Part shown: one piece after another, positions 1-42,729 of the stretch
Layout of the letters: each line of letters opens with the position of its first letter
Numbering within the stretch: position 1 is the stretch's first letter
Source of the DNA: a virus
Taxonomy: Duplodnaviria > Caudoviricetes
Virus record (IMG/VR): IMGVR_UViG_3300037834_000026
Coordinates: 1 to 45,380 of that record
Length of the DNA stretch: 45,380 nt
Direction: 5' to 3' (one strand)
Program-made: the position numbers and the translations under genes
The notes under the pieces: generated by a model
Database searches by the model: none
Told to the model about the DNA's origin: nothing
Seen by the model: only the letters and a program-made list of their open reading frames with translations

Positions 1-1167
1 ATGGCGAAGAAACCATCGGTACGGTACTGGGACAGCCGCGAAGCCTACGGCTGCTGGATCGACGGCACACAGCATATTCTAGCCAAAGGCCCGAACGACG
101 GCCCGAAGGGTCCGACGTACAAGGCGGCCGTGGCCCGCTTCCAAAAGCTGATCGCCATGGAGGCCGACAAGGGCACCGACGAATATCTGGTGTCGTCGCT
201 CCTGAACCAGTACCGCGTGCACCTGCACGCCACCCGCAAGAGCGGCGTGCCCGGCGTGTTCGACATCATGGCCCGCGACTTCGGCAAGAAGTTCGGATCG
301 AAGAAGGTCCGCGAGCTGAAGCCCCACGACTTCGACGGGTGGCTCGCCTCCCAGACGCAGTGGAACCCCACCAGCCAGGCCCACGCCGCCACGCTCATTC
401 TCGGAGCGCTGGGCTGGGCGAAGCGCAAGGGCTTCATCCAGAACGACCCGCTCACCGGCCGCATCGAGCGGCCGCAGCCGATCCTGCGGGGCCGCGACGC
501 GCGCATGAGCGAAGAACTCATGGACCTGCTCATCGGCGAGTGCTTCGCCAAGGCCACGTACCACCGCAAGAAGAGGACGAACACGCCGGCCGTTCACCAC
601 CGCAAGACCGGGTTCTCGGAGAAGTTCGGCAAGTTCCTGTGGCTCCTGCGGCTGACCGGCGCGCGGCCCATCGAAATCCGCATGGCCGAGGCGCACAACT
701 ACCAGAACGGCCGGATCGTCTACCGCTGGAACGCGACGCGTGGCTACGTCCACAAGACGGCGAAGAAGACGCAGCGGGACCGCGTTCTGTTCCTGACGCC
801 CGAGGCCCAGGCGTACGCCGAGGAGTGCATCAAGAAGTACCCGGAGGGGCCGATCTTCCGCACCTCGCGCGGCGACCCGTGGGGGCTGACCAACTGCACG
901 CAAAAGTGGCGGCAATGGCTGCTCAAGCGGCCCAAGGTCGTCGCGTACCTGAAAGAACACGACATCGACCCACGGCAAATCCGCATTTACAACTTCCGCC
1001 ATTCGTGGGCCTGTAACTACCTGGACCGGACGGGCGACGTGTTCGGCGCCGCCATGATGCTCGGCACGTCGGTGAAGATGTTGCAGACGCGGTACTTTCA
1101 CATGGACGAGGAGAAGCTGCACGCCCGGTATCTTGAGTTCATGGCGGGGCGGCAGAAGACGGAGTGA
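1..1167 (+). CDS. int: Tyrosine recombinase/integrase
   Basis: LTGARPIEI (catalytic R), YNFRHSW (HxxR box variant), LGTS..MLQTRY (catalytic Y). Confidence 0.93.
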   Translation: MAKKPSVRYWDSREAYGCWIDGTQHILAKGPNDGPKGPTYKAAVARFQKLIAMEADKGTDEYLVSSLLNQYRVHLHATRKSGVPGVFDIMARDFGKKFGSKKVRELKPHDFDGWLASQTQWNPTSQAHAATLILGALGWAKRKGFIQNDPLTGRIERPQPILRGRDARMSEELMDLLIGECFAKATYHRKKRTNTPAVHHRKTGFSEKFGKFLWLLRLTGARPIEIRMAEAHNYQNGRIVYRWNATRGYVHKTAKKTQRDRVLFLTPEAQAYAEECIKKYPEGPIFRTSRGDPWGLTNCTQKWRQWLLKRPKVVAYLKEHDIDPRQIRIYNFRHSWACNYLDRTGDVFGAAMMLGTSVKMLQTRYFHMDEEKLHARYLEFMAGRQKTE

Positions 1168-1428
1168 CTACCAGAGATCAATTCCCGGCCCGTTCCGCTT
1201 CGGCGCCGGGACCGTCTCCGGCTCGGACGGTTCCACCAGCGCTTCGGCGTCCTCGTTGTCCACGCGGCACGTGCGGAGAAAGGCGGCCAGGTCTTCCGGG
1301 GCGATGGAGATTTTCCCCCTTCGGCCACGGCCGCCAAGCCGAAGATGTGGCAGTCGGCGTTCGGCGCACCACTGATAGACCATCGCAGGCGACACGCCGG
1401 CCTGCTTCGCGGCTTCCTTAACGTTCAT
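1168..1428 (-). CDS. Excisionase-like HTH protein
   Basis: MNVKEAAKQAGVSPAMVYQWCAERRLPHLRLG; convergent with and abutting the integrase. Confidence 0.85.
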   Translation of the reverse strand: MNVKEAAKQAGVSPAMVYQWCAERRLPHLRLGGRGRRGKISIAPEDLAAFLRTCRVDNEDAEALVEPSEPETVPAPKRNGPGIDLW

Positions 1429-1621
1429 GACTCAACTCGTCCAGCACTCCGCAAAAGCGCATCAAGCACTGCCAGCAGAGCGTTTGCCTCGGCCTCTCGT
1501 GGCCTGGGAAGAACACCTCCGCGCCGCCGGTCACGCACCGGCAGCTCTGGCACTCCTTGCGCAGCCGCAGGATGACGGCGATGGGTTTCAGTTCATCTCG
1601 AACGTTCGCGGGTTCTGGCAC
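1418..1621 (-). CDS. Small Cys-rich (CxxC...CxxC) protein
   Basis: GTG at 1621 preceded by AAGGAGG; CQSC and CWQC. Confidence 0.55.
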   Translation of the reverse strand: MPEPANVRDELKPIAVILRLRKECQSCRCVTGGAEVFFPGHERPRQTLCWQCLMRFCGVLDELSHER

Positions 1622-1782
1622 GCTTCGATCCTCCTTCTCCGCTCCTCCCGCACCGCCTGGCCCCAGACGCGCAGGCAGAAGTACACGAAGCCTTCCACCA
1701 GTTCGTCGTCGGCCAGGAGGCACGGATAGTTGTTGTGCATCCACTCGATCACGTGATCGCGCAGTTCGTACTTGTCCATCAC
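1588..1782 (-). CDS. Hypothetical protein
   Basis: 64-aa ORF, start overlaps stop of upstream gene. Confidence 0.6.
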   Translation of the reverse strand: MMDKYELRDHVIEWMHNNYPCLLADDELVEGFVYFCLRVWGQAVREERRRRIEACQNPRTFEMN

Positions 1783-2027
1783 GACGGCTCGCCGCTGCGG
1801 GTGAACCGAACCTGGCAGGCGATCTGCGGGTCCGTCGGTTTGGGCATCAGGTCCGGGGACTGACTCCGAATGAGGCCGAACATCGCCGCCTTGCGGTACG
1901 CGGCGAACAGCGCGGGATTCTTCTTCTCCAGCTCCTTGAGCATCTGGCGAAGAGTCCGGCCCTTGCGGCGCCGACGCTCGCGGACGTTGCGCTTCACGAT
2001 CTGACAGACGGGCATTTGCTTCGGCAT
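1779..2027 (-). CDS. Hypothetical basic protein
   Basis: AAGGAG SD before ATG. Confidence 0.6.
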   Translation of the reverse strand: MPKQMPVCQIVKRNVRERRRRKGRTLRQMLKELEKKNPALFAAYRKAAMFGLIRSQSPDLMPKPTDPQIACQVRFTRSGEPS

Positions 2028-2101
2028 GGGTTGGCTCCTTGCGTTAACGTCGCTGACACATGCCAGCGACGTGGTAGTTTCGGGTGGCTCTGGTTAACAC
2101 A

Positions 2102-2320
2102 TCACTTCGCGGGCACGGCGTTGGCGGACACGGGCACCGCGGCGGGCGCTGCCTTCTTCGCCTGGCCGACCTTCATGGCGACGAGCTGTTGCAGCGCCTT
2201 CCAGGTGAGGAACGCGTTGTTCGCCGTCCCGTCCTCGAACGTGACGGTGATGCCCGGCCCCTCCTTGCCAGAGAGCGAGCAGGTGCCAGTGCCGGTGCTG
2301 TGGATGGTGAGCTTCAACAT
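2102..2320 (-). CDS. Hypothetical protein
   Basis: AAGGAG SD; 72 aa. Confidence 0.7.
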   Translation of the reverse strand: MLKLTIHSTGTGTCSLSGKEGPGITVTFEDGTANNAFLTWKALQQLVAMKVGQAKKAAPAAVPVSANAVPAK

Positions 2321-2511
2321 GACGGACTCCTTGGGATGGAAACGAAAGCCGGAGTTGGTGACGGTTCACCGTCGAAAGCCAACTACCGACCTTGAATCGG
2401 GTTGACGTTTTGGATCCAATTGTTGTGTGGTGAGCCCTCGTCAGCGCAACCGCCGCACGCAAAGCGGCCGGCCAGGGGGCTGCTTGCGGCTTCGCCGTGG
2501 GACTCGGCGAC

Positions 2512-3285
2512 TCACCGCTTTCCGAAATGCCGGTTGATCGCGTACACGATCTCCCCTTCCGACCAGGGCGGAACCGCGCACTGCGCGTTCCAGACATCCC
2601 GCAGGAACGCCAGCGTTTGCTCCGGCGTGCGCCCGGCGTCGCGCATGACGCACACCACGCGGACCAGTCCTTTGCTCCCGTTCTGGCCCTGAACGGAGGG
2701 GATTTTGAGGCAGTACGCTTCCGGGTTGGCGATCCGGCTCAAGCTGTCGCGGACCTCGCCGACAGCGCTTCCGGCAGGGCTCAAGATGATCCGCGCCGCC
2801 TTCTTGGTCCGCTCGCGCGTCCAGGCCACTTTGCACTTCGGCAGCTCGTCCAGGGCGGGGAGCCCTGGCCCGAGCCACTCGTAGCCCGGCGTCGGCGGGA
2901 TGATCGACAGGCCGATGCCGGTCAGCAGGTCCGCGTCTTCGCCCTTCACCTTGATGGTGCGCGAGCGTTCGACGCCCTTCCGCAGCAGGCCGTGGGCGTG
3001 CAGCCCGCCCGACGGCGTGCGGCAAATCGGCGCGTCTTTGAGTCCGCAGCGTTCCAGGATGTCGGCGGCGATGGCGCCGTCGTCCACGTCGATCACCACC
3101 AGCGGCTCGCGGGTGATGACGGCGATGCCGAAGGTCTCGCGCCACCCGCGCTGGATGTCCTCCACGGTGCGCGGCGCGGCGTACAGGTGACGCCACTTCT
3201 CGGCCGGCACCTTGCCTTCCAGCATGCTGACCGGCTCGTAGTCCAGTTGTTTCAGTTCCATTGCGATCTCCTTCATGGTCTTCAT
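2512..3285 (-). CDS. Bifunctional DNA primase/polymerase (Prim-Pol) with C-terminal PriCT-like helical domain
   Basis: LVVIDVDD (DxD), RTPSGGLH, IIPPT..GYEW; C-terminal WNAQCAVPPWSEGEI. Confidence 0.85.
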   Translation of the reverse strand: MKTMKEIAMELKQLDYEPVSMLEGKVPAEKWRHLYAAPRTVEDIQRGWRETFGIAVITREPLVVIDVDDGAIAADILERCGLKDAPICRTPSGGLHAHGLLRKGVERSRTIKVKGEDADLLTGIGLSIIPPTPGYEWLGPGLPALDELPKCKVAWTRERTKKAARIILSPAGSAVGEVRDSLSRIANPEAYCLKIPSVQGQNGSKGLVRVVCVMRDAGRTPEQTLAFLRDVWNAQCAVPPWSEGEIVYAINRHFGKR

Positions 3286-3293
3286 GGCGCGGA

Positions 3294-3446
3294 TTATCTC
3301 ACGGTCATCGCCATGATGACCGCGACGGCGACCGTCGCCGCCAGCGAGATCACCGCCAGCACGGCGTTCGTGTAGTCCTTCGGCGGCTCCGGCTGGGCCT
3401 GGTCTTCGACGTACTCGCGGCTAATTCTGACGTTCATCTTGGCCAT
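3294..3446 (-). CDS. 50-aa single-TM protein (not in ORF track)
   Basis: GGAG SD; MAKMNVRISREYVEDQAQPEPPKDYTNAVLAVISLAATVAVAVIMAMTVR. Confidence 0.65.
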   Translation of the reverse strand: MAKMNVRISREYVEDQAQPEPPKDYTNAVLAVISLAATVAVAVIMAMTVR

Positions 3447-3678
3447 TGCGGTTCTCCAGCATGGGGACGCTCTGGACGGTGGCGCCCTGGGTTTGGAAAG
3501 CGATCTGCATGCGGTTGGGCATGTTGTCGTTGAAAATCTGGCGGGCGATCAGCGGCGCGACCGCGTGCCCGATGGCCGTCGCGGACAGCGCCCCGGCGAT
3601 GGCCCCGGCCGACTTGGAAAGCTCGTCGCCGGTGGCCTCGATCTCGACAATGATTTCTTCTCGGTAGACTCGTGACAT
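3421..3678 (-). CDS. Hypothetical protein
   Basis: GGAG SD before ATG at 3678 (MSRVYREE...). Confidence 0.65.
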   Translation of the reverse strand: MSRVYREEIIVEIEATGDELSKSAGAIAGALSATAIGHAVAPLIARQIFNDNMPNRMQIAFQTQGATVQSVPMLENRNGQDERQN

Positions 3679-3724
3679 CGGTGTTCTCCAAAAGAAAGGC
3701 CTTCCGTGGCCCACGCGCGATCCG

Positions 3725-4099
3725 TCAGTTACCGCGCTCGTACACCGCGATGGCGCGGTCCAGGCGGTCCAGGACCTGTTGCGTCGCCGCGTCGTACTGC
3801 CGCTGCTCCCGGCGGAACTCCTCCACGTAATCGCCGCCGTATCCCGCGCCGTACGTTCCCGCCGGTCGGTAAGCCGGCTGGCGGGTGTACGAAGGCGTGT
3901 ACGCCGGCGTGCTGTACCGGCTCTCCAGCGCCGACAGCTTGCCCTCCACGTTGGCCAGGCGGTCCTCGATGCGGTTCATGCGCTGGTCCATCTTGTCCAG
4001 CACGTCGATGATGCGCGGCACGCGGGGGTCCGGTTGCTGCGCGAACGACGGGGCCGCCAGCAGGAGCGCGGCGGCGGAAGCGATCAGGTAACGAGACAT
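3725..4099 (-). CDS. Secreted coiled-coil protein
   Basis: GAGGTG SD; signal peptide MSRYLIASAAALLLAAPSFA; heptad-rich segments. Confidence 0.75.
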   Translation of the reverse strand: MSRYLIASAAALLLAAPSFAQQPDPRVPRIIDVLDKMDQRMNRIEDRLANVEGKLSALESRYSTPAYTPSYTRQPAYRPAGTYGAGYGGDYVEEFRREQRQYDAATQQVLDRLDRAIAVYERGN

Positions 4100-4102
4100 G
4101 AA

Positions 4103-4354
4103 TCACCTCGACTGGTTGGCCTCGATGCGCCCCAGCCGCTCCATGTCGCGCTGGATATCCGCGCGGTTCACGGCCGGCTGCGACGCAGCGGGGACGGGGG
4201 AGGAATCGGGCGGCATGACGACGATCTGGCCCGGCTTGGCGATGATGGGCGCCGGCTGGGACTCCTTGTTGCACCCGAAGATGGCGCAGACAGCCACGCC
4301 GATCACCAGGAGCAGGCCGCCGAAGATGGCGACCTTTTTCCAATCCACGGACAC
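4103..4354 (-). CDS. Membrane-anchored protein, possible lipoprotein
   Basis: AAGGAGG SD; N-terminal hydrophobic helix ending IFGC; Pro-rich linker. Confidence 0.7.
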   Translation of the reverse strand: MSVDWKKVAIFGGLLLVIGVAVCAIFGCNKESQPAPIIAKPGQIVVMPPDSSPVPAASQPAVNRADIQRDMERLGRIEANQSR

Positions 4355-4803: not shown

Positions 4804-5604
4804 TCACGCATGCGCGGCAACCATGCCACCTTCGTGTCGCCCTTCGTTGCCCCCTTCGTGAATGGCGTATTTGCCACCGTCCAGGCCCGTCCAAATCCGC
4901 CCGTACGGGCTGGCGACCACGTGTTCGATGATGGCGAAGTAGGCATGCTCGCCCAGCGCCTTCGACCACCGCATCGCCCTCTCGATGCGCGAATCGTCCG
5001 GGCACACGATCAGCTTGTCGTCCTTGTTGCCCTCGTATTTTTTCCACCGGGCCTGCACCTGTTCGCGGCTCATGGTGCCGGTGTCGATCTCGACGTGGCA
5101 CGCCTTGCCGTCGATCACGAGGGTGGCGTCGGGCTGCAAAGCGGGGTCCACTTCGGCGCCCGTGAGGAACTTGTGCGGCCAGTACGCCAGGCAAACCTCC
5201 ATGACGTACGCCTCGTGTTCACGATTGCCGAGCTTGATGGAGCGGCTGCACCAGTGGTCTTCCGGGTGCGTGCGCAGCGCTTTCAGGTGCAGCTTTCCGA
5301 GCGGGTAGAGCTGCCGGTCGTCGTACAAGGCGCTCATGCGCCGGGACGCGCGCGTCTTCGTGCGGAACAGGCCGATGGCGATCAGGTGACGGAGCGTGAT
5401 CGGCCCCTTGCGTGCGAGCGCTACGATCGCCGCATCACGCTGCCTGCCTTTGGCGTTGCTGGAGATGATGGCGGTGGGGGTGGAACAGGCGGCAATTGTA
5501 CCACCGGCACCCTGTACTCCGGCCGCCGCTTGATCGCGTCCAGCAGGTCCAGGAACTTCTTTTCCGCCAGTGTCATCCCGTTTCGCAAAGAAAGACCAGA
5601 CCAT
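4804..5604 (-). CDS. Replication-relaxation (Replic_Relax-like) protein, putative relaxase
   Basis: N-terminal wHTH-like part, then HE..V..V, LQPDATL, HVEIDTGTMS, RWKKY (PD-(D/E)xK-type pattern); GGAGAGG SD; overlaps the 3' end of the ATPase gene. Confidence 0.75.
   Translation of the reverse strand: MVWSFFAKRDDTGGKEVPGPAGRDQAAAGVQGAGGTIAACSTPTAIISSNAKGRQRDAAIVALARKGPITLRHLIAIGLFRTKTRASRRMSALYDDRQLYPLGKLHLKALRTHPEDHWCSRSIKLGNREHEAYVMEVCLAYWPHKFLTGAEVDPALQPDATLVIDGKACHVEIDTGTMSREQVQARWKKYEGNKDDKLIVCPDDSRIERAMRWSKALGEHAYFAIIEHVVASPYGRIWTGLDGGKYAIHEGGNEGRHEGGMVAAHA
4829..4859. repeat. 3 x CCTTCGT at 12-bp spacing
   Basis: Copies at 4829, 4841, 4853, within the relaxase 3' end. Confidence 0.7.
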
Positions 5605-6926
5605 AATTCCCTCTCCATCGGCATGTACTCGGGTTCTTCGGTGGCGCTCACGCCGGCGATGAAGCAGTATCCGGGGCCGAGCGTGGTGATCTTCTGCGCG
5701 ACCTTCGCCGTCCACTCCTGGGGCGTGAAGTGCCGTGGCCGCTCCTCCACTTCCTCGCGGTACTTCGCCCGCGCCACGACGTTCGTGTTGCTGCTCTTGC
5801 CCTTCGTCTTCCCCTTGCCGTCCAGCTGCACGCCGCTGCTCGTCACCTCCTCGTACTCGTAGCCGTCGTGCACCTGGCGCTTGTGGAACTCCACGAACTT
5901 GACGCGCAGCGGGTCGTACAGTCTGCTCGCAACGTCCTCGGCGGCGAACTGCGCGGCCTTCGGCGATCCCTGCCGGAACCAGTAGTGCATCATGTTCTGC
6001 ATGACGTTCTCTTCGATTTCCTCGGTGGGAAACACCGCTTGCTGCACGATGATGTCGCACCACCAGTCCCACTTCCCGCCTTCTGCCAGCCCGCGCGAGA
6101 GCTGCGGCGTGACGAGCGCGGAGTTCACCGCCTCGTCGTAGACGTTCAGCACGGGCACCCGGAGCTTGCCGGAGCGCGCCAGCATGAGGACGGAGTGCGA
6201 CAGCGCCCGCATCATGGTCCCGCCGGCGTAGCGCGACAGGTTGCCGCGCGAACTGCCGTCCAGGATCAGCACCCCGTAGTTGTTCAGGAACTCCGCCAGG
6301 TCGAAGCTCGCGCCGTCGCGGACGTACACGCTCGGGCATTCGCAGAAGTTCTTGAGGATGCGCGTGGCCGGGCCGCACTTGTACTCCCACTGCGACGGCG
6401 ACAGCGTGTTGTAGTACTCGAACCGCGCCAGCACGCCGGGGTCCGTGCAGTGCCGCAGGAAGTCGCTCTGCTCCGGCCCTTCGCGGAAGACGCGGGCCAG
6501 CCAGCGGATCGGTGCGCGGCGGTCCTGGGCGAAGTACAGGTCCAGCGCGGCGTCCAGGCCTTCGCGGATGATCGGCGACGCGGAGTCGTCCATCATGCCG
6601 CGCTCGGAGAGCAGGGTTTCCTTGAACGACTGCTTGCGTTCGTCGTTCTCCTGCGCCCGTTGCAGCTCGTCCGGGTTGTTGCTTACCGCCAGGAATTCGT
6701 AGCCCAGCGTCCGGTCGGTGTCGGAGAGCCGGTCGTACAGCACCCGGCTCCGGGCGCCCTCCGCCGCCAGGCGCATCGCCAGCTTCATGGTGAACGTGCC
6801 GTGCGCGTCGTAGGCGACCACCGCGCACTCCCGGCGCTTCACCCGCCGGACGACGTAGCCGAGTTCGTGTTCGCTCTTGCCCGAGCGGGTGGCGCCGCAG
6901 ACAAGGCGGTGATAAAACTTGCTCAT
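5421..6926 (-). CDS. VirD4/TraD-like coupling ATPase (FtsK-HerA superfamily)
   Basis: Walker A GATRSGKS, Walker B LNVYDEA, LAEGGK...IIVQQ; adjacent to relaxase-like gene. Confidence 0.8.
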   Translation of the reverse strand: MSKFYHRLVCGATRSGKSEHELGYVVRRVKRRECAVVAYDAHGTFTMKLAMRLAAEGARSRVLYDRLSDTDRTLGYEFLAVSNNPDELQRAQENDERKQSFKETLLSERGMMDDSASPIIREGLDAALDLYFAQDRRAPIRWLARVFREGPEQSDFLRHCTDPGVLARFEYYNTLSPSQWEYKCGPATRILKNFCECPSVYVRDGASFDLAEFLNNYGVLILDGSSRGNLSRYAGGTMMRALSHSVLMLARSGKLRVPVLNVYDEAVNSALVTPQLSRGLAEGGKWDWWCDIIVQQAVFPTEEIEENVMQNMMHYWFRQGSPKAAQFAAEDVASRLYDPLRVKFVEFHKRQVHDGYEYEEVTSSGVQLDGKGKTKGKSSNTNVVARAKYREEVEERPRHFTPQEWTAKVAQKITTLGPGYCFIAGVSATEEPEYMPMERELWSGLSLRNGMTLAEKKFLDLLDAIKRRPEYRVPVVQLPPVPPPPPSSPATPKAGSVMRRS

Positions 6927-7510: not shown

Positions 7511-8158
7511 TCACGGTGTCCTGTTACTCATGCCGCCATCGAAATCGAATCCGAGCGGAGCCTTGTCGAGTTGCGGCGCGCCGAAGTGCGCCACCTTCGT
7601 CAGCAGGTCGAACAGCAGTAGCCCGTAGCACCACCCGGTGCACACCGGCACCACCGTCCTGCCCGGCTCCACGCCTTTCAGGGCGTTGCCCTTCAGCCGC
7701 GACAACTCTGTGGCCAGAGCCCCGTCGCTCACACCCGCGCACCTTGCGATGCGCTTCCGTCCGTCGGTGCCCTTCACGTCGAATCCGTACAAGACATGCA
7801 GGACGATGCCGCGCTGGACGCCGTTGCTGGCGAACTCGCCGAGCTGGATGATTCGCTCGGTGACGATCTCCCCGTCTTCCCATGTCTGCTCCAGCGCCAC
7901 GTCGCCGGTGATGTCCTCCATCTCGCGCCGCTTCTCACGCCGCAGCGCGGCCGTGAAGCACTGAAACGCCAGCTCGTGAAGGAACGCCTTTGGATGCTCG
8001 ATAACCTTCTTCTGCTTGGCCAGAAAGAACTTCACCATCATTTCCTGGGCGATGTCATCCACGTCGTAGATGCCGACGCGCTGCCCGCCCATCGCCTTGC
8101 GGGCCTCGGCCTTGGCAACGCCAAGCAGCTCCTCGTATTCTCTCGTCAGGTCGCTCAT
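7511..8158 (-). CDS. ECF-type sigma-70 factor
   Basis: Region 2 DVDDIAQEMMVKF...PKAFLHELA...LRREKRR; region 4 IARCAGVSDGALATELSRLK; AGGAGG SD. Confidence 0.75.
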   Translation of the reverse strand: MSDLTREYEELLGVAKAEARKAMGGQRVGIYDVDDIAQEMMVKFFLAKQKKVIEHPKAFLHELAFQCFTAALRREKRREMEDITGDVALEQTWEDGEIVTERIIQLGEFASNGVQRGIVLHVLYGFDVKGTDGRKRIARCAGVSDGALATELSRLKGNALKGVEPGRTVVPVCTGWCYGLLLFDLLTKVAHFGAPQLDKAPLGFDFDGGMSNRTP

Positions 8159-8228
8159 GTCTTTCCCTCCTGCTTAAGTAGCAGCGCGAGATTTCCACAG
8201 ATTACACGGGTGAAGAAAAATTCTCGCA

Positions 8229-12367: not shown

Positions 12368-12368
12368 G

Positions 12369-34770: not shown

Positions 34771-34849
34771 GCGGCGAGGCGTTCGGCCAGCATTTGCTCT
34801 CGGGTGGGTTCACTGGGCATGTTCAGGTTGGGAAAGGGGGGCAGGGGGG

Positions 34850-35146: not shown

Positions 35147-35399
35147 TGGGGGTGGGGAAGGTTAAATCCTCGACTTGCTGGGCGAGAAAAAGAGACAGAA
35201 TGAAAACGATGCCGATGTTTCCAATCGCCAGGATTAAGCCCATCGGTCGATGCGCGATAATCCAGTCATTTAACGCGGTTGTAAAAGTGCCGAGAAGCAT
35301 CCCGTAAAACGTGAAGAGAAGCGCCCAGAGAAACGCCAGTCGGTCCAGCTTTTCCCGCAACTCCTGGTCATGGGCCGGTTCTGATGCGGCGGTGTTCAT
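35133..35399 (-). CDS. Two-TM membrane protein
   Basis: LAFLWALLFTFYGMLLG and LILAIGNIGIVFILSLFL; locally AT-richer. Confidence 0.65.
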   Translation of the reverse strand: MNTAASEPAHDQELREKLDRLAFLWALLFTFYGMLLGTFTTALNDWIIAHRPMGLILAIGNIGIVFILSLFLAQQVEDLTFPTPNDEQ

Positions 35400-35731
35400 G
35401 CAGCGACGCGGTTTACGAGGCCAAGGGCAACGTTGACATCCATCCAGAAAGCGACGTTTCCGTTCTCGGCGTCCATCCAATTGCATGCCATCTTCCACTC
35501 GCCATCTTCGCGGACGAGGATGCCCTGCTCTCGGATGCGCGCAATGATCTCGCGGATGCGCGGGCGCGACAGGGACACGAGCGGTGCCAGCTGCCGGAGG
35601 GTCGGCAGGTAGCCGGTGCCAACGGCCAGCAGGATCACGGCGACCTGGAAGGCTACGTCCTCTTCGCTCAACTTCGGATCAAGGTCGTGGGCCAGTGCTT
35701 TGACTTCTTCCGGGGTGAGGTTGGCGCTCAT
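35396..35731 (-). CDS. Possible winged-helix protein
   Basis: LRQLAPLVSLSRPRIREIIARIREQGIL. Confidence 0.6.
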   Translation of the reverse strand: MSANLTPEEVKALAHDLDPKLSEEDVAFQVAVILLAVGTGYLPTLRQLAPLVSLSRPRIREIIARIREQGILVREDGEWKMACNWMDAENGNVAFWMDVNVALGLVNRVAA

Positions 35732-35790
35732 AACGTGAGGAGTGAAAGGATGGGTCCGCCGATGCAGAGGGCGTAGAAGATGGTGGTCAT
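35728..35790 (-). CDS. 20-aa hydrophobic peptide
   Basis: MTTIFYALCIGGPILSLLTL; ATGA overlaps at both ends. Confidence 0.5.
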   Translation of the reverse strand: MTTIFYALCIGGPILSLLTL

Positions 35791-35942
35791 TTGGCTTTTG
35801 GAGAAGGCGGCGGACAGCGGAGCCAGTGGCGCCATAAACCGGTGTTTGTCTTGATGCCGTTTTCCTTCCGGCGCTTGGCGGCCAGGGCGCGGTCCTCGTC
35901 GTCCATGTAGATGGTGGTGGGCTTGGGGTTCTGTAACGTCAT
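35787..35942 (-). CDS. 51-aa ribbon-helix-helix-like regulator (not in ORF track)
   Basis: MTLQNPKPTTIYMDDEDRALAAKRRKENGIKTNTGLWRHWL...; ATG 6 nt after TATCCT. Confidence 0.65.
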   Translation of the reverse strand: MTLQNPKPTTIYMDDEDRALAAKRRKENGIKTNTGLWRHWLRCPPPSPKAK

Positions 35943-35948
35943 GGCCAA

Positions 35949-36017
35949 AGGATACATGAGCTAGTGCAAGATGCAATAGACAAACCTATTGCATTATGAT
36001 GTTACCCGTGCTACTAT
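35949..36017. promoter_or_regulatory. Divergent promoter pair/genetic switch
   Basis: Rightward TTGCAT-N17-TACTAT (35989-36017); leftward TTGCAT-N16-TATCCT (35976-35949); inverted repeat ATGCAATAG-N6-CTATTGCAT. Confidence 0.75.
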
Positions 36018-36044: not shown

Positions 36045-36461
36045 ATGGCTCTCAAGCCACTCACCCCGGAAGAACTCGCCACCGAAGAGGCGCGCATCCA
36101 GGCCTACGAAGACCAGGGCATGACGCGCAGCGATGCGCAGGGACGCGTCGAAGCCGAAGACAGGTTCCCGGAGGACAAGACCACAGCACCGGCGCACACT
36201 CCTGGACCGTGGAAAGCCCTCAACTGGATGGTGTACGACGGAAACGACAAGCCGATCTGCGAATGCAAAGGCAAGGTGGTCGGGGCTGGCCTCTCCGCTC
36301 CCGACCACAATGCCAACCGCATCGTCGCCTGCGTGAACGCCTGCGAGGGGTTGAACCCGGAGGCCGTGAAGGAAATGTACGAAATGCTCCGCGTCCTGAA
36401 CGAACGCCTGGATGATCCCGAAATTGACGCCCTGCTCGCCAAAGCCGAAGGCCGTTCCTGA
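36045..36461 (+). CDS. Phage early protein
   Basis: HTPGPW and ANRIVACVNACEG motifs common in phage early genes. Confidence 0.75.
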   Translation: MALKPLTPEELATEEARIQAYEDQGMTRSDAQGRVEAEDRFPEDKTTAPAHTPGPWKALNWMVYDGNDKPICECKGKVVGAGLSAPDHNANRIVACVNACEGLNPEAVKEMYEMLRVLNERLDDPEIDALLAKAEGRS

Positions 36462-36485
36462 TTCATTTCATCCTTCCTTCCTATC

Positions 36486-36899
36486 ATGGCCACCGCCAAC
36501 CCCACAGCACCGGCACGACTCGCCATCTTCGTCGCCACGAAGCAGACCCAGGGCAAACGCCGTTCGGATTTCTGCTGGTGCGAAGAGGACGAGCCGGTTC
36601 ACTTCTCGTCCCAGTGCGACGGCAACGACACCATCGACGGCGGTTGCGGGTGCCAGCGGTCCATGTCCGGTATGACCACGCTCAAGGCAACGACGACGGT
36701 TCGCGTGAAGGAATCGGACATGACCCGTGAGCAGTACATTCAGATGCTCGTGGACAGCTACAAGAAGGGAGGCTGGGGCGGCCTCATTCCATCTACTGAA
36801 ATCCACGCGGAAGCGGATGAACTACTCCGCCTCGCCGCTGCTTTCCCCGTTGGGACCGTTATCGAGAAACGCGGCGACGAATTGCGACAGCGAGCCTAG
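36486..36899 (+). CDS. Cys-rich uncharacterised protein
   Basis: VATKQTQG..SDFCW.EE.E...DGGCGC.RS.SG....ATTT. Confidence 0.75.
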   Translation: MATANPTAPARLAIFVATKQTQGKRRSDFCWCEEDEPVHFSSQCDGNDTIDGGCGCQRSMSGMTTLKATTTVRVKESDMTREQYIQMLVDSYKKGGWGGLIPSTEIHAEADELLRLAAAFPVGTVIEKRGDELRQRA

Positions 36900-36905
36900 C
36901 GTTGT

Positions 36906-36944
36906 GCGGCTCGTTGGAGCCGCCCCTGGTGGGCTTACTCACCA
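36906..36944 (+). repeat. Two-hairpin intergenic motif, copy 1
   Basis: GCGGCTC/GAGCCGC then TGGTGGG-CTTA-CTCACCA. Confidence 0.6.
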
Positions 36945-36971
36945 CTGCTCTATCACAGCAAAGGCAACCAA

Positions 36972-37145
36972 ACGAGGATCGGAAGCTGGCGTGGTATCAA
37001 CGCGGGACCGCTAATGCAATCCCGCACATCGGGACGCCGAGCCACACATGGCAGGTGCGTACGCCCGGTTCGCAACCGGAAACGCCTAGCGCACGAAGTG
37101 GGCAGGGGGAAAGTATGCCCCCTGCCGCCAGCTTCCGGTCCTCGT
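36972..37145 (+). ncRNA. Putative multibranched structured RNA
   Basis: 20-bp closing stem (one U.G) enclosing at least five internal stems. Confidence 0.65.
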
Positions 37146-37161
37146 CTTATCCAATACCAAC

Positions 37162-37248
37162 ATGCCTCCCATGTACTACTTCGAACCCCAGGAAGTCCGT
37201 CTCACGACGTTCTCCGGCAACGTGATCGTCCTGCCCCTCCGATGGTAG
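37162..37248 (+). CDS. 28-aa peptide
   Basis: MPPMYYFEPQEVRLTTFSGNVIVLPLRW; overlaps next start. Confidence 0.4.
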   Translation: MPPMYYFEPQEVRLTTFSGNVIVLPLRW

Positions 37249-37337
37249 CCGCGATCATCGCCCTCATCATCGGCCTCTGCATCATCATCGATCTCGTCCG
37301 GCACCTGCTGGACGGCACTTCCATCTTCCTCCCATGA
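37242..37337 (+). CDS. 31-aa hydrophobic peptide
   Basis: MVAAIIALIIGLCIIIDLVRHLLDGTSIFLP; ATGA-coupled to next gene. Confidence 0.6.
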   Translation: MVAAIIALIIGLCIIIDLVRHLLDGTSIFLP

Positions 37338-38110
37338 CACACAACACCTTCACCATCGGCCGCCCGCGCCGGCCCCTGTTCCACTTCGTCCCCGCCGCAG
37401 AGAACGCGGCACCCGCTCGCCGCTCCGTCGGCACGGTCCTGCACGGAAAGTTTCTGGATTGGCTGGCCGCTTCCGACATCCGCAAGCTGGCAACCCGCTC
37501 CGCCATGATCCTCCTGCTGGCCGGGCTCGTCGGCAGCACCCAGTTCACGCTCGGCCTGCTCACCGCCGCCGCCAAGTGGAACGGCTACCGCATCCCGCTC
37601 TTCCTCGCGCTGCTCGCTCTGACGTTGAACGCCAAGACCATTTTCCTGGCATCAAGAAAATGGTCGCTCAGACGCCGGGGTGCCAATCAGCACACGTACC
37701 AGGGGCTCCCCGTGGACGAACTGGCGAGCTACCTGCTGGAGACGCGCGCCTTCACCCGCGACGCCGCGTGCCTCAAGTTCGCCATTTCCTGGAAGAAGCA
37801 CCAGCGCATCGCCGACGAACTCATGCACCACCAAGTGCTGGTCCGTGGCCCGGTGAACAACGCCCGCGTCCTCAACGAGAAGATCACCCGCGAGCAACTT
37901 GTCCGCCAGCTGCGCGAGAACTTCCCGCTCGCCTTCGCGGACGGGGAGTGGGTGGAGAGGCGCGGCAGCTACCACCTCTTTCTGCGGGACAAGGAACGCG
38001 CCGAGCAGAAGGAGCGCGAGCGCGTGGAACGCCTGGAGCGCCGGGCCGACCGGGCGGAACGAAAGCTCACCCGGACGACTGGCCTTCAAAGGCTGTTCGC
38101 GCAGACGTAG
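37334..38110 (+). CDS. Two-TM protein with FtsK-gamma-like winged helix and coiled coil
   Basis: Two hydrophobic helices; FAISWKKHQRIADELMHHQVLVRGPVNNARVL; KERERVERLERR tail. Confidence 0.65.
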   Translation: MTHNTFTIGRPRRPLFHFVPAAENAAPARRSVGTVLHGKFLDWLAASDIRKLATRSAMILLLAGLVGSTQFTLGLLTAAAKWNGYRIPLFLALLALTLNAKTIFLASRKWSLRRRGANQHTYQGLPVDELASYLLETRAFTRDAACLKFAISWKKHQRIADELMHHQVLVRGPVNNARVLNEKITREQLVRQLRENFPLAFADGEWVERRGSYHLFLRDKERAEQKERERVERLERRADRAERKLTRTTGLQRLFAQT

Positions 38111-38206
38111 CCGGTTGCAACGGCCGGAAAACCGGGGTTAAGCGGGGTTGCAACCGCCCGAGCAAACCGATGGCAAAACACACCGCTTATCCGCTTCCCG
38201 TGTCCC

Positions 38207-38626
38207 ATGCTGCAATTCTTCCCGATAGGCCTGACCTTCGCCGCGAGCATCGCGTTCGCGGACCAACCGCCGCCGGTTCCGCCGCGCACGCTCACCGTGA
38301 CCACAACGAGTTATAATCCCGAGCCCGGCCAGACGGACCACGCCCCGTGCATCGGCGCCTCCGGCCGCGACTTGTGCCTGGCCGCCCGCGAGGGCGACCG
38401 GACCATCGCGCTCTCCCGCGACCTGCTTGCGTACTACGGGCTGGGCGGGCGCTACCGCTGGCACGACAAGGTACGCCTCCGCTCCGCCGCGCCGGGCTGC
38501 AACGGCGTGTTCTCCGTCGAAGACACCATGAACGTCCGGTTCAGCCGCCGGGCTGACATCTTCTCCGCCGACCGCGCCCAGAATGTCGGCCGGTGCATTG
38601 CCACCGTGGAACCATTCGGGCAATAA
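38207..38626 (+). CDS. Secreted 3D-domain (MltA/RlpA-like) protein
   Basis: Signal peptide; TTTSYN...QTD..PCIGASG, IALSRDL, VEDTMN.RF..RADIF. Confidence 0.8.
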   Translation: MLQFFPIGLTFAASIAFADQPPPVPPRTLTVTTTSYNPEPGQTDHAPCIGASGRDLCLAAREGDRTIALSRDLLAYYGLGGRYRWHDKVRLRSAAPGCNGVFSVEDTMNVRFSRRADIFSADRAQNVGRCIATVEPFGQ

Positions 38627-38655
38627 TTCCCTTACTTCCTTTTCTTTTTCATCCC

Positions 38656-39036
38656 ATGCAAAAGTCATACATCGTCCCGTACTCGCTGGCCGCCGCCGCC
38701 CTCGCCATCGCGGGCCTGCTCCTGCTCACTGCGCAGAAGGCATCCGCCGCCGACTTCTCCAACGTCATCGGCGTCGATGCCGAACTGCGCATCGTGGAGC
38801 GCGTCACGGACAAGACCATTTTCCAGGACATCCGCCGCGTGCAGTCCTACCGCGTCACCGAAGTCAATGGCTCCGGCGCGCTGGTCACTCGCACGGAGAC
38901 GAACGAGTCCGCCGTGATCGCCAACAGCGACGTGGTAATCGACATCTGCCAGAAGGTGCAGCAACTCCTTGGTCTTTCCACCGAGGGCTGCGGGGTCAAA
39001 TCCGCTGGCCGCACCCGCCAGCCGAACGAGCGTTAA
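38656..39036 (+). CDS. Secreted hypothetical protein
   Basis: Signal peptide ...LAIAGLLLLTAQKASA. Confidence 0.7.
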   Translation: MQKSYIVPYSLAAAALAIAGLLLLTAQKASAADFSNVIGVDAELRIVERVTDKTIFQDIRRVQSYRVTEVNGSGALVTRTETNESAVIANSDVVIDICQKVQQLLGLSTEGCGVKSAGRTRQPNER

Positions 39037-39056
39037 TCCGCCGCGCACCGCGCGAG

Positions 39057-39083
39057 AGGCCCATCCGAACGGTGGGCCTTTTT
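39057..39083 (+). terminator. Intrinsic terminator
   Basis: AGGCCCATC-CGAAC-GGTGGGCCT-TTTT. Confidence 0.8.
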
Positions 39084-39195
39084 CGTGCAGAGAGCGGCAC
39101 CGAAGCTGCCCAAGACAGCGCGTCGGTGCCGCGTCAATTGCTTTGCGGATTCAGCCGTGCTAACAATGCTCGCCGTCCTTTCTCCTTCACCATCC

Positions 39196-39390
39196 ATGCC
39201 AGCACAAGTCAGCGATCAAATCCCACTGGACGAGTGGGCAGACTCCAAGAACGTCCCGCAGCGCACGGCGAACGGCTGGGCCAAGAGCGGCAAGATCAAG
39301 GCCAGAATGCAGACCGCGCTTGTGACCGTAACTGTCACCAGGAAGGTGCGGAAATACTTCGTGAACAAGAGCGAACCACTCCCGCAATAA
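39196..39390 (+). CDS. Small MerR/Xis-like HTH protein
   Basis: LDEWADSKNVPQRTANGWAKSGKIKA. Confidence 0.7.
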   Translation: MPAQVSDQIPLDEWADSKNVPQRTANGWAKSGKIKARMQTALVTVTVTRKVRKYFVNKSEPLPQ

Positions 39391-39405
39391 GTCAACGACT
39401 TCTTC

Positions 39406-39434
39406 TTGCGCGTTCAGCCACGCTGATATAGCAT
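39406..39434 (+). promoter_or_regulatory. Promoter containing a palindromic operator (leaderless)
   Basis: TTGCGC-N17-TAGCAT, ATG 6 nt later; TCAGC-CAC-GCTGA in spacer. Confidence 0.65.
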
Positions 39435-39440
39435 ACAGCC

Positions 39441-39632
39441 ATGCTTTCCACTGCCACCCCCGCCGTCACGAATCCTTGCCCGTGCTGCCTCGAAGAAGGA
39501 CACGAAATCCAGCTGCACCGCGTGACCGAAAACCCGGAAGGATACGGCGTCGTTCCCTTCTTCTACTGCGAACGCTGCGAGTACATGACGGACGAGGACA
39601 GCGGGCAGCCGGAAGTAGACGAACACAAATAG
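39441..39632 (+). CDS. Small Zn-ribbon protein
   Basis: CPCC...CERC. Confidence 0.7.
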   Translation: MLSTATPAVTNPCPCCLEEGHEIQLHRVTENPEGYGVVPFFYCERCEYMTDEDSGQPEVDEHK

Positions 39633-39661
39633 CACTTTCTTATTTCCATCCATCCCTTTCC

Positions 39662-40102
39662 ATGCTCCTCTCCGAAGCCCTCGCAGACCTCAAAGCCAGC
39701 TACCTCGCCGTTCAGAGTGAGAACGTCCAACGCCAGGCCATCATGGAAACGCCGGAGTACAAGGCGCTCAAAGAGAAGATGGACGCTATGCTCGCCGTCG
39801 TTCCTGACAGTTCCGATGAATACGCCGCCGACCTGGCCGCCACGCTCAAGTTCATGAACGAGAACGGGATTCACAAGGCCGAAGGATTCGTGGTCAAGAC
39901 CCGGGCCACCCGAAGCGTCGATGTCCTGGCCGTACTCCGCGCGATGGGCGGCGACATCGACAACCTCATGCTCGTTACGAACGTCACGCAGAAGAGCCTG
40001 GAGAAATTCATCAAAGACAACCCCGGCTACAAGGCCGACCTGCGCGCCTGCATTAAGGACGAGGGCGTTAAGGTTGTCGATGTCGCGCCACAAACCGTTT
40101 AG
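39662..40102 (+). CDS. Hypothetical protein
   Basis: Pyrimidine-rich leader; 146 aa. Confidence 0.7.
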   Translation: MLLSEALADLKASYLAVQSENVQRQAIMETPEYKALKEKMDAMLAVVPDSSDEYAADLAATLKFMNENGIHKAEGFVVKTRATRSVDVLAVLRAMGGDIDNLMLVTNVTQKSLEKFIKDNPGYKADLRACIKDEGVKVVDVAPQTV

Positions 40103-40128
40103 CTTTTATTTCCATTCTCCCCACGACG

Positions 40129-40359
40129 ATGAAAACTCAATCCGCCTGGGCCACCATCAGCGGCAAAGTGTACGTCTCGCAGGACGAAATTGACGACCTG
40201 CTCGCCGCCGGTGAAGACGAGGCCGGAAACAAGATCACGACGGAGCAAGACGCATTTAAACACCTGGCTGAGGCCAAGTTGTTCGCCCTGTTCCCGACCG
40301 ACGACCCGTTCAAGCACAACGAAACCGTGATCGACATGACTTCGCTGCGAACCAGCTAG
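40129..40359 (+). CDS. Hypothetical protein
   Basis: Pyrimidine-rich leader; 76 aa. Confidence 0.7.
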   Translation: MKTQSAWATISGKVYVSQDEIDDLLAAGEDEAGNKITTEQDAFKHLAEAKLFALFPTDDPFKHNETVIDMTSLRTS

Positions 40360-40370
40360 AGCCCAGCGGG

Positions 40371-40417
40371 TGCGGCCCGTGTCGTGGGGCCGGGCCGCAG
40401 CCGGTGCGCTTTGCACT
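40371..40417 (+). repeat. Two-hairpin intergenic motif, copy 2
   Basis: TGCGGCCCG/CGGGCCGCA then GGTGCG-CTT-TGCACT. Confidence 0.55.
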
Positions 40418-40438
40418 CATTCATTCCCAATTCACTCC

Positions 40439-40654
40439 ATGCCGACGTTCACCGTCCACCGCAAGGAATCCGTTGTCTCCGCCGCCGAGATCGAAGCCCG
40501 CGACGAGGCCCACGCGCTGCAAATCGCGCGCGCCCTTGAGGGCACCGAGAACCAGCCGAAGTACGCGGAGCAGTCGCGGTCGTCGCCGCGCCTGTCGATC
40601 CCCGGCTACTCGCCGCGCAAGGGCGACAAGCCCGACGATTCGGAGCAAGCCTAG
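40439..40654 (+). CDS. Hypothetical protein
   Basis: MPTFTV...EIEARDEAHALQIA. Confidence 0.7.
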   Translation: MPTFTVHRKESVVSAAEIEARDEAHALQIARALEGTENQPKYAEQSRSSPRLSIPGYSPRKGDKPDDSEQA

Positions 40655-40660
40655 CGGTGA

Positions 40661-40699
40661 GCCGCATGCCCCGCGTGCGGCCCCCGGTGGGCTTCCACC
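40661..40699 (+). repeat. Two-hairpin intergenic motif, copy 3
   Basis: GCCGCATGC/GCGTGCGGC then GGTGG-GCTT-CCACC. Confidence 0.6.
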
Positions 40700-40729
40700 A
40701 ATTTTTTACCCCATTCTCCCATTCTTACC

Positions 40730-41644
40730 ATGACTACCGCAGTCGCTACCAAGGAGGAGACGGCCCTGGCCGGACTCTCCGAAGACGAACAGGCGGCCCT
40801 CAAGGCCGACCGCGAAAAGCTGGGCGGCAAGTTCCCGTCCATCCCCATGATCCGCCTGGCGAACAAGGACATGGAACAGGCGCCCGAAGGCGAGTACTTC
40901 ATTGAGAAGCGCCTCGGCGACCAAGTGGAAATCACTCCCATCGGCAAAGACCCCGTCATCACCATCCTGTACCGCACGTTCACGTACAGCTACTACACGC
41001 CGGAACTGGGCCTGGTGGCCTGGACCAGCGACATCCACGGATTCACCGACTTGGATGACGTGGTGCTGTACAAGAAGGTCAACGGCCAGGTGGTCATCGA
41101 CTTCGAAGGCGTGTACCCGGCGCTCAAGAGGCACATGGAGGCCAAGTACAAGCAGAACGATCCCGTCACCGGCAAGGCCAAGAAGCTGCTCAAGTTCAAG
41201 ACCGTGCTGTACGTGAACTACAACGGCGGCATCTACAAGATGTTCGTCTCCAACGCCTCGTCGGCCGGCGTCGATCACGACGGGAACCCCAGCTTCGACA
41301 AGGCGCAGCCGAACTCGCTACAGGCCGTCATGGACGGCTACCGCAAGCAGAAGCGGGTGAGTTACGAGTTCTCCGTGATGCTCGGTTCCAAGCTGGTGAA
41401 GGGCGAGAAAAAGCCGTTCTACATCATGACCTTCGCGTCGCTGGCTCAACTGGACTCCGGCATGCTCCGGCAGTCCATGAAGCTGTCCCACGAAGTGCAG
41501 AAAACCATCGTCATGATCGATGACGCCCGCAAGGCGTGGAACAAGCGGGAGCAGGACAGTGAGTCGGAACCGATTCATGTTGAAGCGGATGTAGATAACG
41601 ACGAATACCTGTCCAAGATCAAGCCGGAAGATTTGCCCTTCTAG
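40730..41644 (+). CDS. Putative ssDNA-binding/annealing protein
   Basis: 304 aa with acidic tail ending EDLPF (SSB-like); early-region position. Confidence 0.6.
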   Translation: MTTAVATKEETALAGLSEDEQAALKADREKLGGKFPSIPMIRLANKDMEQAPEGEYFIEKRLGDQVEITPIGKDPVITILYRTFTYSYYTPELGLVAWTSDIHGFTDLDDVVLYKKVNGQVVIDFEGVYPALKRHMEAKYKQNDPVTGKAKKLLKFKTVLYVNYNGGIYKMFVSNASSAGVDHDGNPSFDKAQPNSLQAVMDGYRKQKRVSYEFSVMLGSKLVKGEKKPFYIMTFASLAQLDSGMLRQSMKLSHEVQKTIVMIDDARKAWNKREQDSESEPIHVEADVDNDEYLSKIKPEDLPF

Positions 41645-41646
41645 CC

Positions 41647-41850
41647 ATGCCAGCCACCCGCTCACCTTCGGCGCCGATCTGCCCGAACTGCTCCGTTCAA
41701 ATGGTGCTTCGGCGCCGGAAGGTAGACGGGCATCCGTTCTACGGGTGCCCCAAGTTTCCCCGGTGCAGCGAAACCGCGCCGCACGAGGACGACGACCTGG
41801 CCGAAACCGTCACTCCGTATGACCGTCCCGATTCCGATTACGACGACTGA
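41647..41850 (+). CDS. Topoisomerase-type C4 zinc-finger protein
   Basis: CPNC..MVLR......FYGC.KFPRC. Confidence 0.8.
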   Translation: MPATRSPSAPICPNCSVQMVLRRRKVDGHPFYGCPKFPRCSETAPHEDDDLAETVTPYDRPDSDYDD

Positions 41851-41852
41851 CC

Positions 41853-42134
41853 ATGGCTTTCGGTGAGCCCATCCGCCGGGCCGTCGTCGTGATCGACCCG
41901 ATCACCAAGGAGAAGCTGCGCCAGTGCGAACGTCCGGGCTGCGGGAAGATGCACGACAAGGTGAAAGAACCGCTGTGCAAGGAGTGCCGCAAGAACGCCG
42001 TTTGCTCCCGCCGCGACGACGGCCACTGCCCGCTATCCTGGACGATCTACCCCTGCCCGGACGGCACCGTGTACGCCAAGTGCGGCGACTGTCAGAAGCA
42101 GTACGTCCACACCTATCCGCCTTCCCGAAGCTGA
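41853..42134 (+). CDS. Cys-rich Zn-binding protein
   Basis: CERPGC, CKEC, CGDC. Confidence 0.7.
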   Translation: MAFGEPIRRAVVVIDPITKEKLRQCERPGCGKMHDKVKEPLCKECRKNAVCSRRDDGHCPLSWTIYPCPDGTVYAKCGDCQKQYVHTYPPSRS

Positions 42135-42136
42135 CC

Positions 42137-42421
42137 ATGGCTATCGAACACGAGCGAACCGAGGACGTGACCTGCCCGTTCTGCGGCTATGAGTTCGATT
42201 TCGGGCGGTCCAGGGACATGGTGGAGTACGAAGATTACGAGTGCGAGAAGTGCAAACGGGTTTTCTACCTGGCCAGCGCGGAGAAGCTGTACACGACGTA
42301 CGGAGCTTGCGCCAGGTACGGCGGCGAGCCGAGCCACGACTGGCAGCCGACCGTGGCAGAAGGGTACGAGAAGTGCGCGCGGTGCCGCGATGTCCGCAAG
42401 GTTCCCGTGCCTGCCGCATGA
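42137..42421 (+). CDS. Zn-ribbon protein
   Basis: CPFCG, CEKC, CARC. Confidence 0.7.
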   Translation: MAIEHERTEDVTCPFCGYEFDFGRSRDMVEYEDYECEKCKRVFYLASAEKLYTTYGACARYGGEPSHDWQPTVAEGYEKCARCRDVRKVPVPAA

Positions 42422-42729
42422 AGGAATACCCGGCCGTCCTCCGGGGCTTCCAGGTCAGACGTGACGACGCGGGCGTGCTGCGCTACAGCCTGGCCGTCGA
42501 GTTCGATGAATTCGGGATGACCGCCGTGGAGGGTCCGGCGGGGACGGCCGAACATCCCGGCACCGTGCTGACGGTCCTGGTGGCCAGGCTTCTGGAACAC
42601 TTCTGGGCTGCGTCCACGGACGACCTGCGGGACATCGCGTGCGTCATCCGCGCCGACGACGAGCGCGGGGAACGGATTGTCGCCGTGCGCTCGTTCGCGC
42701 GCACGGACTGGCTGGAGCTGGCACGATGA
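42418..42729 (+). CDS. Hypothetical protein
   Basis: ATGA-coupled; 103 aa. Confidence 0.65.
   Translation: MKEYPAVLRGFQVRRDDAGVLRYSLAVEFDEFGMTAVEGPAGTAEHPGTVLTVLVARLLEHFWAASTDDLRDIACVIRADDERGERIVAVRSFARTDWLELAR

Follow-up and report, generated by a model that had tools for sequence, protein, structure and literature searches.

A tailed phage nested within a planctomycete integrative mobilizable element, and its likely origin in a lineage that infects the candidate phyla radiation

The IMG/VR virus record IMGVR_UViG_3300037834_000026, a stretch of 45,380 nucleotides (all of it is called the window here), joins the genes of a tailed phage (9.7-42.7 kb) to those of an integrative mobilizable element (IME; 1-9.6 kb). 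The architecture is that of a phage nested inside the IME, not of two elements side by side. It is carried by the gene content, by one contig that runs over both junctions, by a stranded start of the gene tatD beyond the window, and by the fact that the two parts differ in ancestry. The left part is a member of a common Gemmatales IME family. The phage likely comes from a lineage that infects candidate phyla radiation (CPR) bacteria, as judged from the genetic code of its relatives and from its gene-start signals. The whole element is likely about 46.4 kb long, with one predicted att pair enclosing the IME genes, the phage, and a vsr-dcm-HNH cargo. The explanation that fits best, and that is held with modest confidence, is that a planctomycete IME captured a CPR-lineage phage on a single occasion; capture as IME cargo had been named as an alternative in an initial annotation made from the letters alone. 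The structure is real, and the cross-phylum signal in it is surprising and testable.

One element at a tatD site

The window is classed in IMG/VR as a provirus and begins at the ATG of an integrase gene; the record was therefore cut out of a longer one. A 53,383-bp Logan contig crosses both phage junctions without any difference from the window, the comparison covering positions 1-19,900, the right end at its matching offset, and 5.9 kb further. Its depth is 14.6, the summed depth in the bin of the left junction is 15.1, and nearby host contigs have depths of 16.6 and 17.1, indicating a single copy at about the host level. Continuity of the junctions, which the initial annotation had proposed to check with reads, is supported at the level of contigs. 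A 130,329-bp contig also crosses the right junction and encodes proteins from both parts. A stretch of it (L282), returned by a pattern scan, has its first 10,033 bases identical to the end of the window and continues with a sugar isomerase-like gene, a ferredoxin-NADP reductase, a kinase, and accA. The first three of these genes have 80-82% DNA identity to four Gemmatales genomes, and the host is therefore a Gemmatales planctomycete. Its family is likely Gemmataceae.

The integrase (1..1167, + strand; phrog_1, E 1e-23) is a tyrosine integrase of a tatD-targeting Gemmatales family. It has the R, xxxR-H, and Y motifs, and its full-length Gemmatales relatives are 57-79% identical. All ten relatives fetched (L194, L195, L197, L199, L201, L203, L204, L206, L207, and L208) have a tatD-like gene nearby, its first codons at a distance of 116-183 bp. 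In L204, a 20-bp direct repeat of the tatD first codons flanks a 10.4-kb element with a TraG-like gene. Inside the window there is no copy of the tatD start within 3 mismatches, and neither terminal repeats nor tRNA targets are seen in it. A candidate attR is found 880 bp beyond its end (L282:10914-10932), where the first codons of tatD can be read on the reverse strand. This site matches the tatD start of a near relative of the host at 18 of 20 positions, compared with 12-15 in 40 shuffles and 15 at the best place in the window. Because this tatD start is stranded past the window, one att pair likely encloses the IME, the phage, and the restriction-modification cargo. The unit, first described as ending at 42729, continues through vsr, dcm, and HNH to the att site. 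That one integrase serves both parts was correctly recognized; the att pair is probably single too, its right end being the candidate just described, and separate pairs were not found.

Two comparisons with kin genomes are uninformative for attR. The genes past attR are not beside tatD in 15 stretches from kin, but the upstream neighbour of tatD varies, and a CAP-like gene was not found in five kin genomes. Just past attR (L282:10965-10990) there is a motif like the integrase leader of the relatives (CAGGATACC then ATG) with a short frame, which is possibly the remnant of an earlier insertion at the tatD site. Throughout the integrase family, insertion in the tatD first codons appears to restore the start of the gene, and the cargo differs widely among genomes. 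Three copies in this family align piecewise.

The left phage junction (9517..9699) contains a 34-codon hydrophobic open reading frame (ORF) and has no repeat in common with the right one (42730..42873), where an ORF whose start overlaps the last phage stop (42726) continues into the vsr leader. The longest repeat common to the two phage ends is 9 bp, which is at chance level (7-12 bp for random pairs), and the reported lack of an att-like repeat is confirmed. The gap between the lysis genes and DUF932, given before as under 100 bp, is in fact 184 bp (holin stop at 9700, DUF932 start at 9516). Upstream of DUF932, at 9543-9590, lies an inverted repeat that is short and imperfect (GGATCACTGGCC ... 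GGCCAGTATCC, as written for the + strand), a candidate operator or oriT.

The left part had been described as having int/xis, Prim-Pol, a Replic_Relax-like gene, and a VirD4-like ATPase and no mating-pore genes, and both profiles and a structure model support this. Mating-pore families are not found among the left-part ORFs scanned with PHROGs and Pfam. The putative relaxase (4804..5604, - strand) is Replic_Relax-like (MobC-like), with a winged helix and a nuclease-like domain. PF13814, the profile proposed for it, matches the window protein below its cut-off (22.1 vs 25.3 bits), and seven of nine aligned homologs match it at some score (best E 6e-7). The motif D..ExD is invariant, and a fold search gives weak nuclease and winged-helix matches (best E 5e-3), none at E 0.001 or better. 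The overlapping gene (5421..6926, - strand) encodes an ATPase of 501 aa with a Walker A sequence GATRSGKS and no Pfam match. Its model (pLDDT 84, 38 sequences) has a VirD4/TrwB coupling-protein fold, the best matches being Cag-beta (E 1.6e-10) and TrwB (E 4e-8), and TrwB_AAD_bind is weakly matched by 5 of 38 homologs. No hydrophobic or membrane segment exists in the sequence, and the coupling ATPase is without a membrane anchor of its own.

With the ATPase profile, matches are found in 21 of the 267 Gemmatales genomes and in no IMG/VR contig; viral contigs carrying the IME ATPase, integrase, or relaxase were not found. The order ATPase-relaxase-PrimPol-xis-int is kept in the Gemmatales loci L082 and L194. 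From 10 related Gemmatales IME loci, 89 of 104 ORFs were scanned (those omitted overlie IME genes already matched), and none matched a virion family. L082 has a type I restriction system beyond its IME module. In another locus (L209 of genome G184), two relaxase-ATPase pairs of the family, 10 kb apart, lie beside an integrase at tRNA-Phe, so that the relaxase-ATPase module also partners other integrases and sites. The integrase-excisionase interval of L194 (5040-6500; genome G190) holds four small genes with pyrimidine-rich leaders lacking a Shine-Dalgarno (SD) motif. One of them is 55% identical to window 36486-36899, and none has a match among the viral loci compared. Similar phage-type DNA may have been captured here a second time, at the same tatD hotspot.

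Lineage of the phage

A tail-tube profile retrieves 21 IMG/VR relatives of the phage, and two more are found by the large terminase (TerL), giving 23 in total. Ten of the 21 are at least 90% complete, three have terminal repeats (37.3-39.5 kb), and the largest is 44.7 kb. The 17 relatives examined whole or nearly whole are syntenic with the window, with 41-57% identity in the tube and 45-53% in TerL. A homolog of the gene at 37334, a marker of the clade, exists in seven of the 17. In the relatives this marker and the fibre gene run toward each other with a few kb between them, and it is in that interval that the phage of the window has been opened. No IME gene, the ATPase included, is found in the 17 relatives, an outcome that the initial annotation had named among those that would refute its proposal. 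With the 89 IME-locus ORFs also free of matches to virion families, an established hybrid that spreads both by virion and by conjugation is not supported. Neither phrog_1 nor PF00239 matches any of the 23 relatives, while the window and control genomes are positive for phrog_1. The clade (G273-G291) consists of tailed phages of 33-45 kb with a GC content of 26-58%, code 11 and code 25 being intermixed.

In 12 of 19 relatives (two of them near-identical), the conserved virion genes have 30-193 in-frame TGA codons, mostly aligned to Gly. Reading through TGA lifts the coding density of these 12 from 0.07-0.55 to 0.83-0.92. It is reported that TGA as Gly is typical of Gracilibacteria, Absconditabacteria, and their prophages (PMC10746230; this and the other papers cited here are drawn on in part). 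In a quick tree, the TerL of the window falls in a clade with 10 code-25 rows (SH-aLRT 98-99), and in a tree of the tail tube the monophyly of the code-25 members is rejected (AU p 0.019).

The start signals of the phage are also unlike those of the host. SD motifs precede none of 30 phage genes, compared with 28 of 59 genes of the host's kin and 6 of 11 genes of the window IME (p 6e-7). They are found in 10 of 27 genes of other Gemmatales IMEs and in 5 of 22 of a native Gemmatales prophage region, and their frequency in the phage relatives is 0-12%. Pyrimidines are more frequent in the phage leaders than in 101 Gemmatales leaders that have no SD motif (0.70 vs 0.48, p 9e-10). Gene starts were chosen by one simple rule for all sets, and the SD and leader figures are estimates. 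Both these signals and the code-25 members of the lineage were missed in the initial annotation.

The tail tube was not found in 401 sampled Planctomycetota genomes, in a search whose positive controls worked. The TerL profile gives none but distant matches, in 9 of 267 Gemmatales genomes (best E 5e-49). Among cultured phages and plasmids, the best TerL match is 41% identical, and neither the tail tube nor the ATPase has a match. Codon usage and tetranucleotides were tried as a test of origin and are uninformative (0.30-0.83 for Gemmatales loci, 0.60-0.75 for unrelated viral loci of high GC content; p 0.39).

Capture and its alternatives

The capture of the phage by the IME may be pictured as follows. 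Phage DNA would have entered the planctomycete from an infected epibiont or through mis-injection. It may have joined the IME via homology-free recombination, with the opening at the point where early genes and lysis genes meet head-on. The IME integrase and excisionase could excise the entire 46.4-kb circle, and the relaxase and coupling ATPase would mobilize the element only via a mating pore supplied by a different element. In the planctomycete host, the phage genes are probably not expressed or expressed at a low level, and spread of the element as a virion is unproven. A single capture is favoured because neither family shows the other in the searches, because the unit exceeds any relative in size, and because the depth shows no replication.

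Several points weigh against this reading. A capture at random would not lead one to expect that the core genes are intact and that the phage is opened at the sole place that spares its operons. The phage itself uses code 11: 21 of its 46 genes end in TGA, the conserved genes have no in-frame stops, and its last host therefore used code 11. Code-11 relatives of Gracilibacteria and Absconditabacteria exist, namely Peribacteria and Peregrinibacteria. TGA avoidance was looked for in the phage and is not seen. Its GC content of about 64% is host-like, and three of its genes have Gemmatales homologs (the early methylase at 58%, the 36486 gene at 55%, and the initiator at 41%). No clade member has a host identified directly. 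Among the relatives, one is classified as a provirus and has a sister on a contig of 499,835 bp, so that the clade may not be strictly non-integrating. As for the limits of the element, attL, expected just left of position 1 from the ten integrase relatives, is not seen, and a second att copy is missing in nine of those ten within the DNA fetched. Finally, both assemblies, and hence all the contiguity evidence, may derive from one sample.

Some further observations touch on the host of the lineage. In cluster look-ups, the sole host name is the Calditrichia label of a metagenome-assembled genome (MAG); it stands on a contig of 42,433 bp that may be a binned phage. DNA of the early region is matched in 6 of 267 Gemmatales genomes, five of them through the methylase. 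The homolog of the initiator is on a 3.4-kb contig of a Gemmatales MAG (L411), where the next gene has a pyrimidine-rich leader, and this contig may be phage DNA that was binned wrongly.

Owing to the intact genes and the clean opening point, a working hybrid stays in consideration. A code-11 member of the CPR-phage lineage would have switched host and would use the integrase and att site of the IME, its 46.4-kb circle being packaged as well as conjugatively mobilized. This is unlikely, though far from negligible. All the core virion genes are of normal size, a single att pair likely bounds the whole unit, the GC content matches the host, and three genes have Gemmatales homologs. The IME and the cargo also occupy the usual place of a temperate module, since temperate phages of the lambda layout carry int/attP at the corresponding position. 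Phages co-targeted by the CRISPR systems of CPR and of non-CPR bacteria have been described (PMC10746230). However, a second example is absent from all searches (viral contigs, phage relatives, and Planctomycetota genomes), the leaders differ from those of host genes, of other Gemmatales IMEs, and of the native prophage region, the unit is larger than all 21 relatives, and the depth is not raised. That a CPR-lineage phage crossed into the planctomycete and became temperate via the IME integrase, its 46-kb circle now spreading as a virion and by mobilization, is a rather doubtful course of events.

It is improbable that the window is an assembly chimera, in which a free CPR phage from the same culture was joined to a planctomycete contig at two points. 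The two parts do differ in ancestry and signals, only one public run (labelled as an algae metagenome and possibly the source of the record itself) carries the stretch, and contiguity rests on contigs rather than raw reads. Yet the two long contigs run over the junctions, one of them over both and without differences, and the left junction has about the depth of its contig. A mis-join driven by a repeat expects a long word common to both ends, where the longest has 9 bp. A chimera thus needs two joins without a common repeat in two assemblies, though these may share reads. Very unlikely is an ordinary temperate phage that integrated into the IME with an integrase and att site of its own and later lost both. 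The opening at the usual int/attP position, the relative classed as a provirus, and the published nesting in Phage::ICE elements (PMC13651849) would suit it, but neither an integrase nor a resolvase is found in the 23 relatives, of which 10 have a completeness of 90% or more, and the phage ends have neither an integrase remnant nor an att-like repeat. The other alternative of the initial annotation, a satellite (the left part) beside its helper, is hardly credible. Although int-xis-PrimPol resembles the core of a satellite, the left part has relaxase-like and coupling genes, no att site lies between it and the phage, and no virion genes are found close to its relatives.

For a phage captured as IME cargo, the kind of structure is known, because nested Phage::ICE elements are already published. 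In those nested composites and tandems (Huang et al. 2026, PMC13651849), a prophage sits within an integrative element related to conjugation, and the composite could be excised and travel together. Here, by contrast, the outer element has no mating pore, the sole integrase is that of the IME, the phage has no att site of its own, and its lineage is apparently that of another phylum. The IME resembles streptococcal IME class 8, which has a compact layout of coupling protein, PF13814 relaxase, excisionase, and integrase without a pore; for streptococcal IMEs, PF13814 has been treated as MobC and found together with VirD4 (PMC5357655). It differs in its tyrosine integrase (serine in class 8), Prim-Pol and DUF932, tatD target, planctomycete host, and 33 kb of phage. 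A relaxase and a coupling protein without a complete mating-pore system are also known from planctomycete chromosomes, in which a survey found no complete pore system (bioRxiv 10.1101/2024.01.22.576637). The parts of that survey consulted report MOBF and MOBP only, whereas the relaxase here is PF13814-like and below the Pfam cut-off.

The phage is like those of Gracilibacteria and Absconditabacteria (Liu et al. 2023, PMC10746230) in that its close relatives read TGA as Gly and its lineage mixes code 25 and code 11. Unlike code-25 phages, it ends many genes in TGA and is not compatible with code 25. The cross-phylum evidence for the published phages, and for CPR phages in the literature as far as covered, is spacer matches of CRISPR arrays, while here a whole genome is found in a non-CPR contig. 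No report of a CPR-lineage phage in a planctomycete element was found in a literature search that left subscription papers mostly uncovered, and the tables of PMC13651849 and PMC10746230 could list cases. The main texts of PMC10746230, PMC12911398, and PMC12647753 contain no word starting with 'planctomy'.

If the origin suggested here is true, a CPR-lineage phage in a planctomycete chromosome would be direct evidence that such DNA enters a non-CPR cell and persists in it, and it points to a testable partnership of CPR bacteria and Gemmataceae in an algal community. Should the phage have crossed over and become temperate, the element would be a physical record of a phage passing between a CPR epibiont and its host, with Gemmataceae as the partner of an uncultured CPR group. 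Apart from its origin, the analysis outlines a clade of 33-45 kb phages in which two genetic codes are mixed and, in Gemmatales, a family of integrases that target tatD and a PF13814/VirD4 IME family, the latter two not listed in the parts consulted of the published plasmidome survey.

Genes of the phage, the IME, and the cargo

The phage part had been called morphogenetically complete, and this is correct: terminase, portal, Mu-type protease and capsid, neck, tape measure, tail tube, and M23 endolysin are all found. Its 33 kb show no in-frame stop in 134 alignments, and the core structural genes are intact and of normal size. Of the gene clusters common to at least five of 13 relatives, only a Sak4-like one has no match in the window; the code-25 ORF calls behind such shared-gene counts include wrong-strand frames, and the counts are lower bounds. 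The phage also lacks an integrase and a transposase, as first noted: phrog_1 matches the window at 115-1128 only, PF00239, for resolvases, not at all, and no transposase match to Pfam or PHROGs is found in the window. A Mu-like transposable phage was considered and rejected, as only the head genes are Mu-type, no transposase is matched, and end repeats are at chance level.

On the - strand, the lysis end (9700..10706) consists of a holin-like small membrane protein, the M23 endolysin (PF01551, E 1e-15), and a small ORF, the holin label resting on size, position, and hydropathy. It is followed by the tail and neck module (10760..21198, - strand) with fibre, hub, tape measure, tail tube (18097-19353), neck, and adaptor, assigned by PHROGs and syntenic in the relatives. 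No tail sheath is seen in this module. The tail tube is named via PF18906 labels on its homologs, and fibre, hub, and adaptor by position. The head and packaging module (21732..30503, - strand; phrog_371, 1731, 328, 113, 241, 979, and 7344) encodes a Mu gpT-type capsid, a decoration protein, a protease, a portal fused to a head-morphogenesis domain, TerL, and the small terminase TerS.

The DnaD/O-like initiator (31238..31885, - strand; phrog_186) has ten iteron-like repeats with 12-bp spacing inside its gene (31512-31660), and a second replication module besides Prim-Pol, as first described, is thereby upheld. The adjoining region (32098..35957) holds RusA, a C5 methylase (33277-34770), and small leftward early genes recognized by PHROGs. 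The rightward early operon (36045..42729, + strand) includes the clade marker (37334-38110), for which an Atlas search gave no lead above 0.76, and a Pam3 gp34-like protein (40730-41644; Atlas score 0.96).

The remaining IME genes are all on the - strand. An excisionase-like HTH_17 protein (1168..1428; PF12728, E 1e-9) adjoins the integrase, and Prim-Pol (2512..3285) is recognized by its N-terminal bifunctional primase/polymerase domain (PF09250, above cut-off). Of the small ORFs at 3294..4354, two (3294-3446 and 4103-4354) have a strongly hydrophobic segment, with a hydropathy of 2.7-2.8 across 19 residues. A sigma-factor-like gene (weak NF009179 match) and a second conserved gene (7511..8718) have 41-49% homologs in Gemmatales IMEs. 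DUF932 (8764..9516; PF06067), with 48-60% homologs in four Gemmatales IME loci, is the final IME gene before the phage.

At the right end (42874..45380), Vsr, a C5 methylase, and an HNH nuclease form a restriction-modification-like cargo inside the element, which extends past the window end. The HNH gene is convergent with vsr-methylase, and its frame runs beyond the window (L282:8879-10261). Its product weakly resembles phosphorothioate-dependent restriction enzymes.

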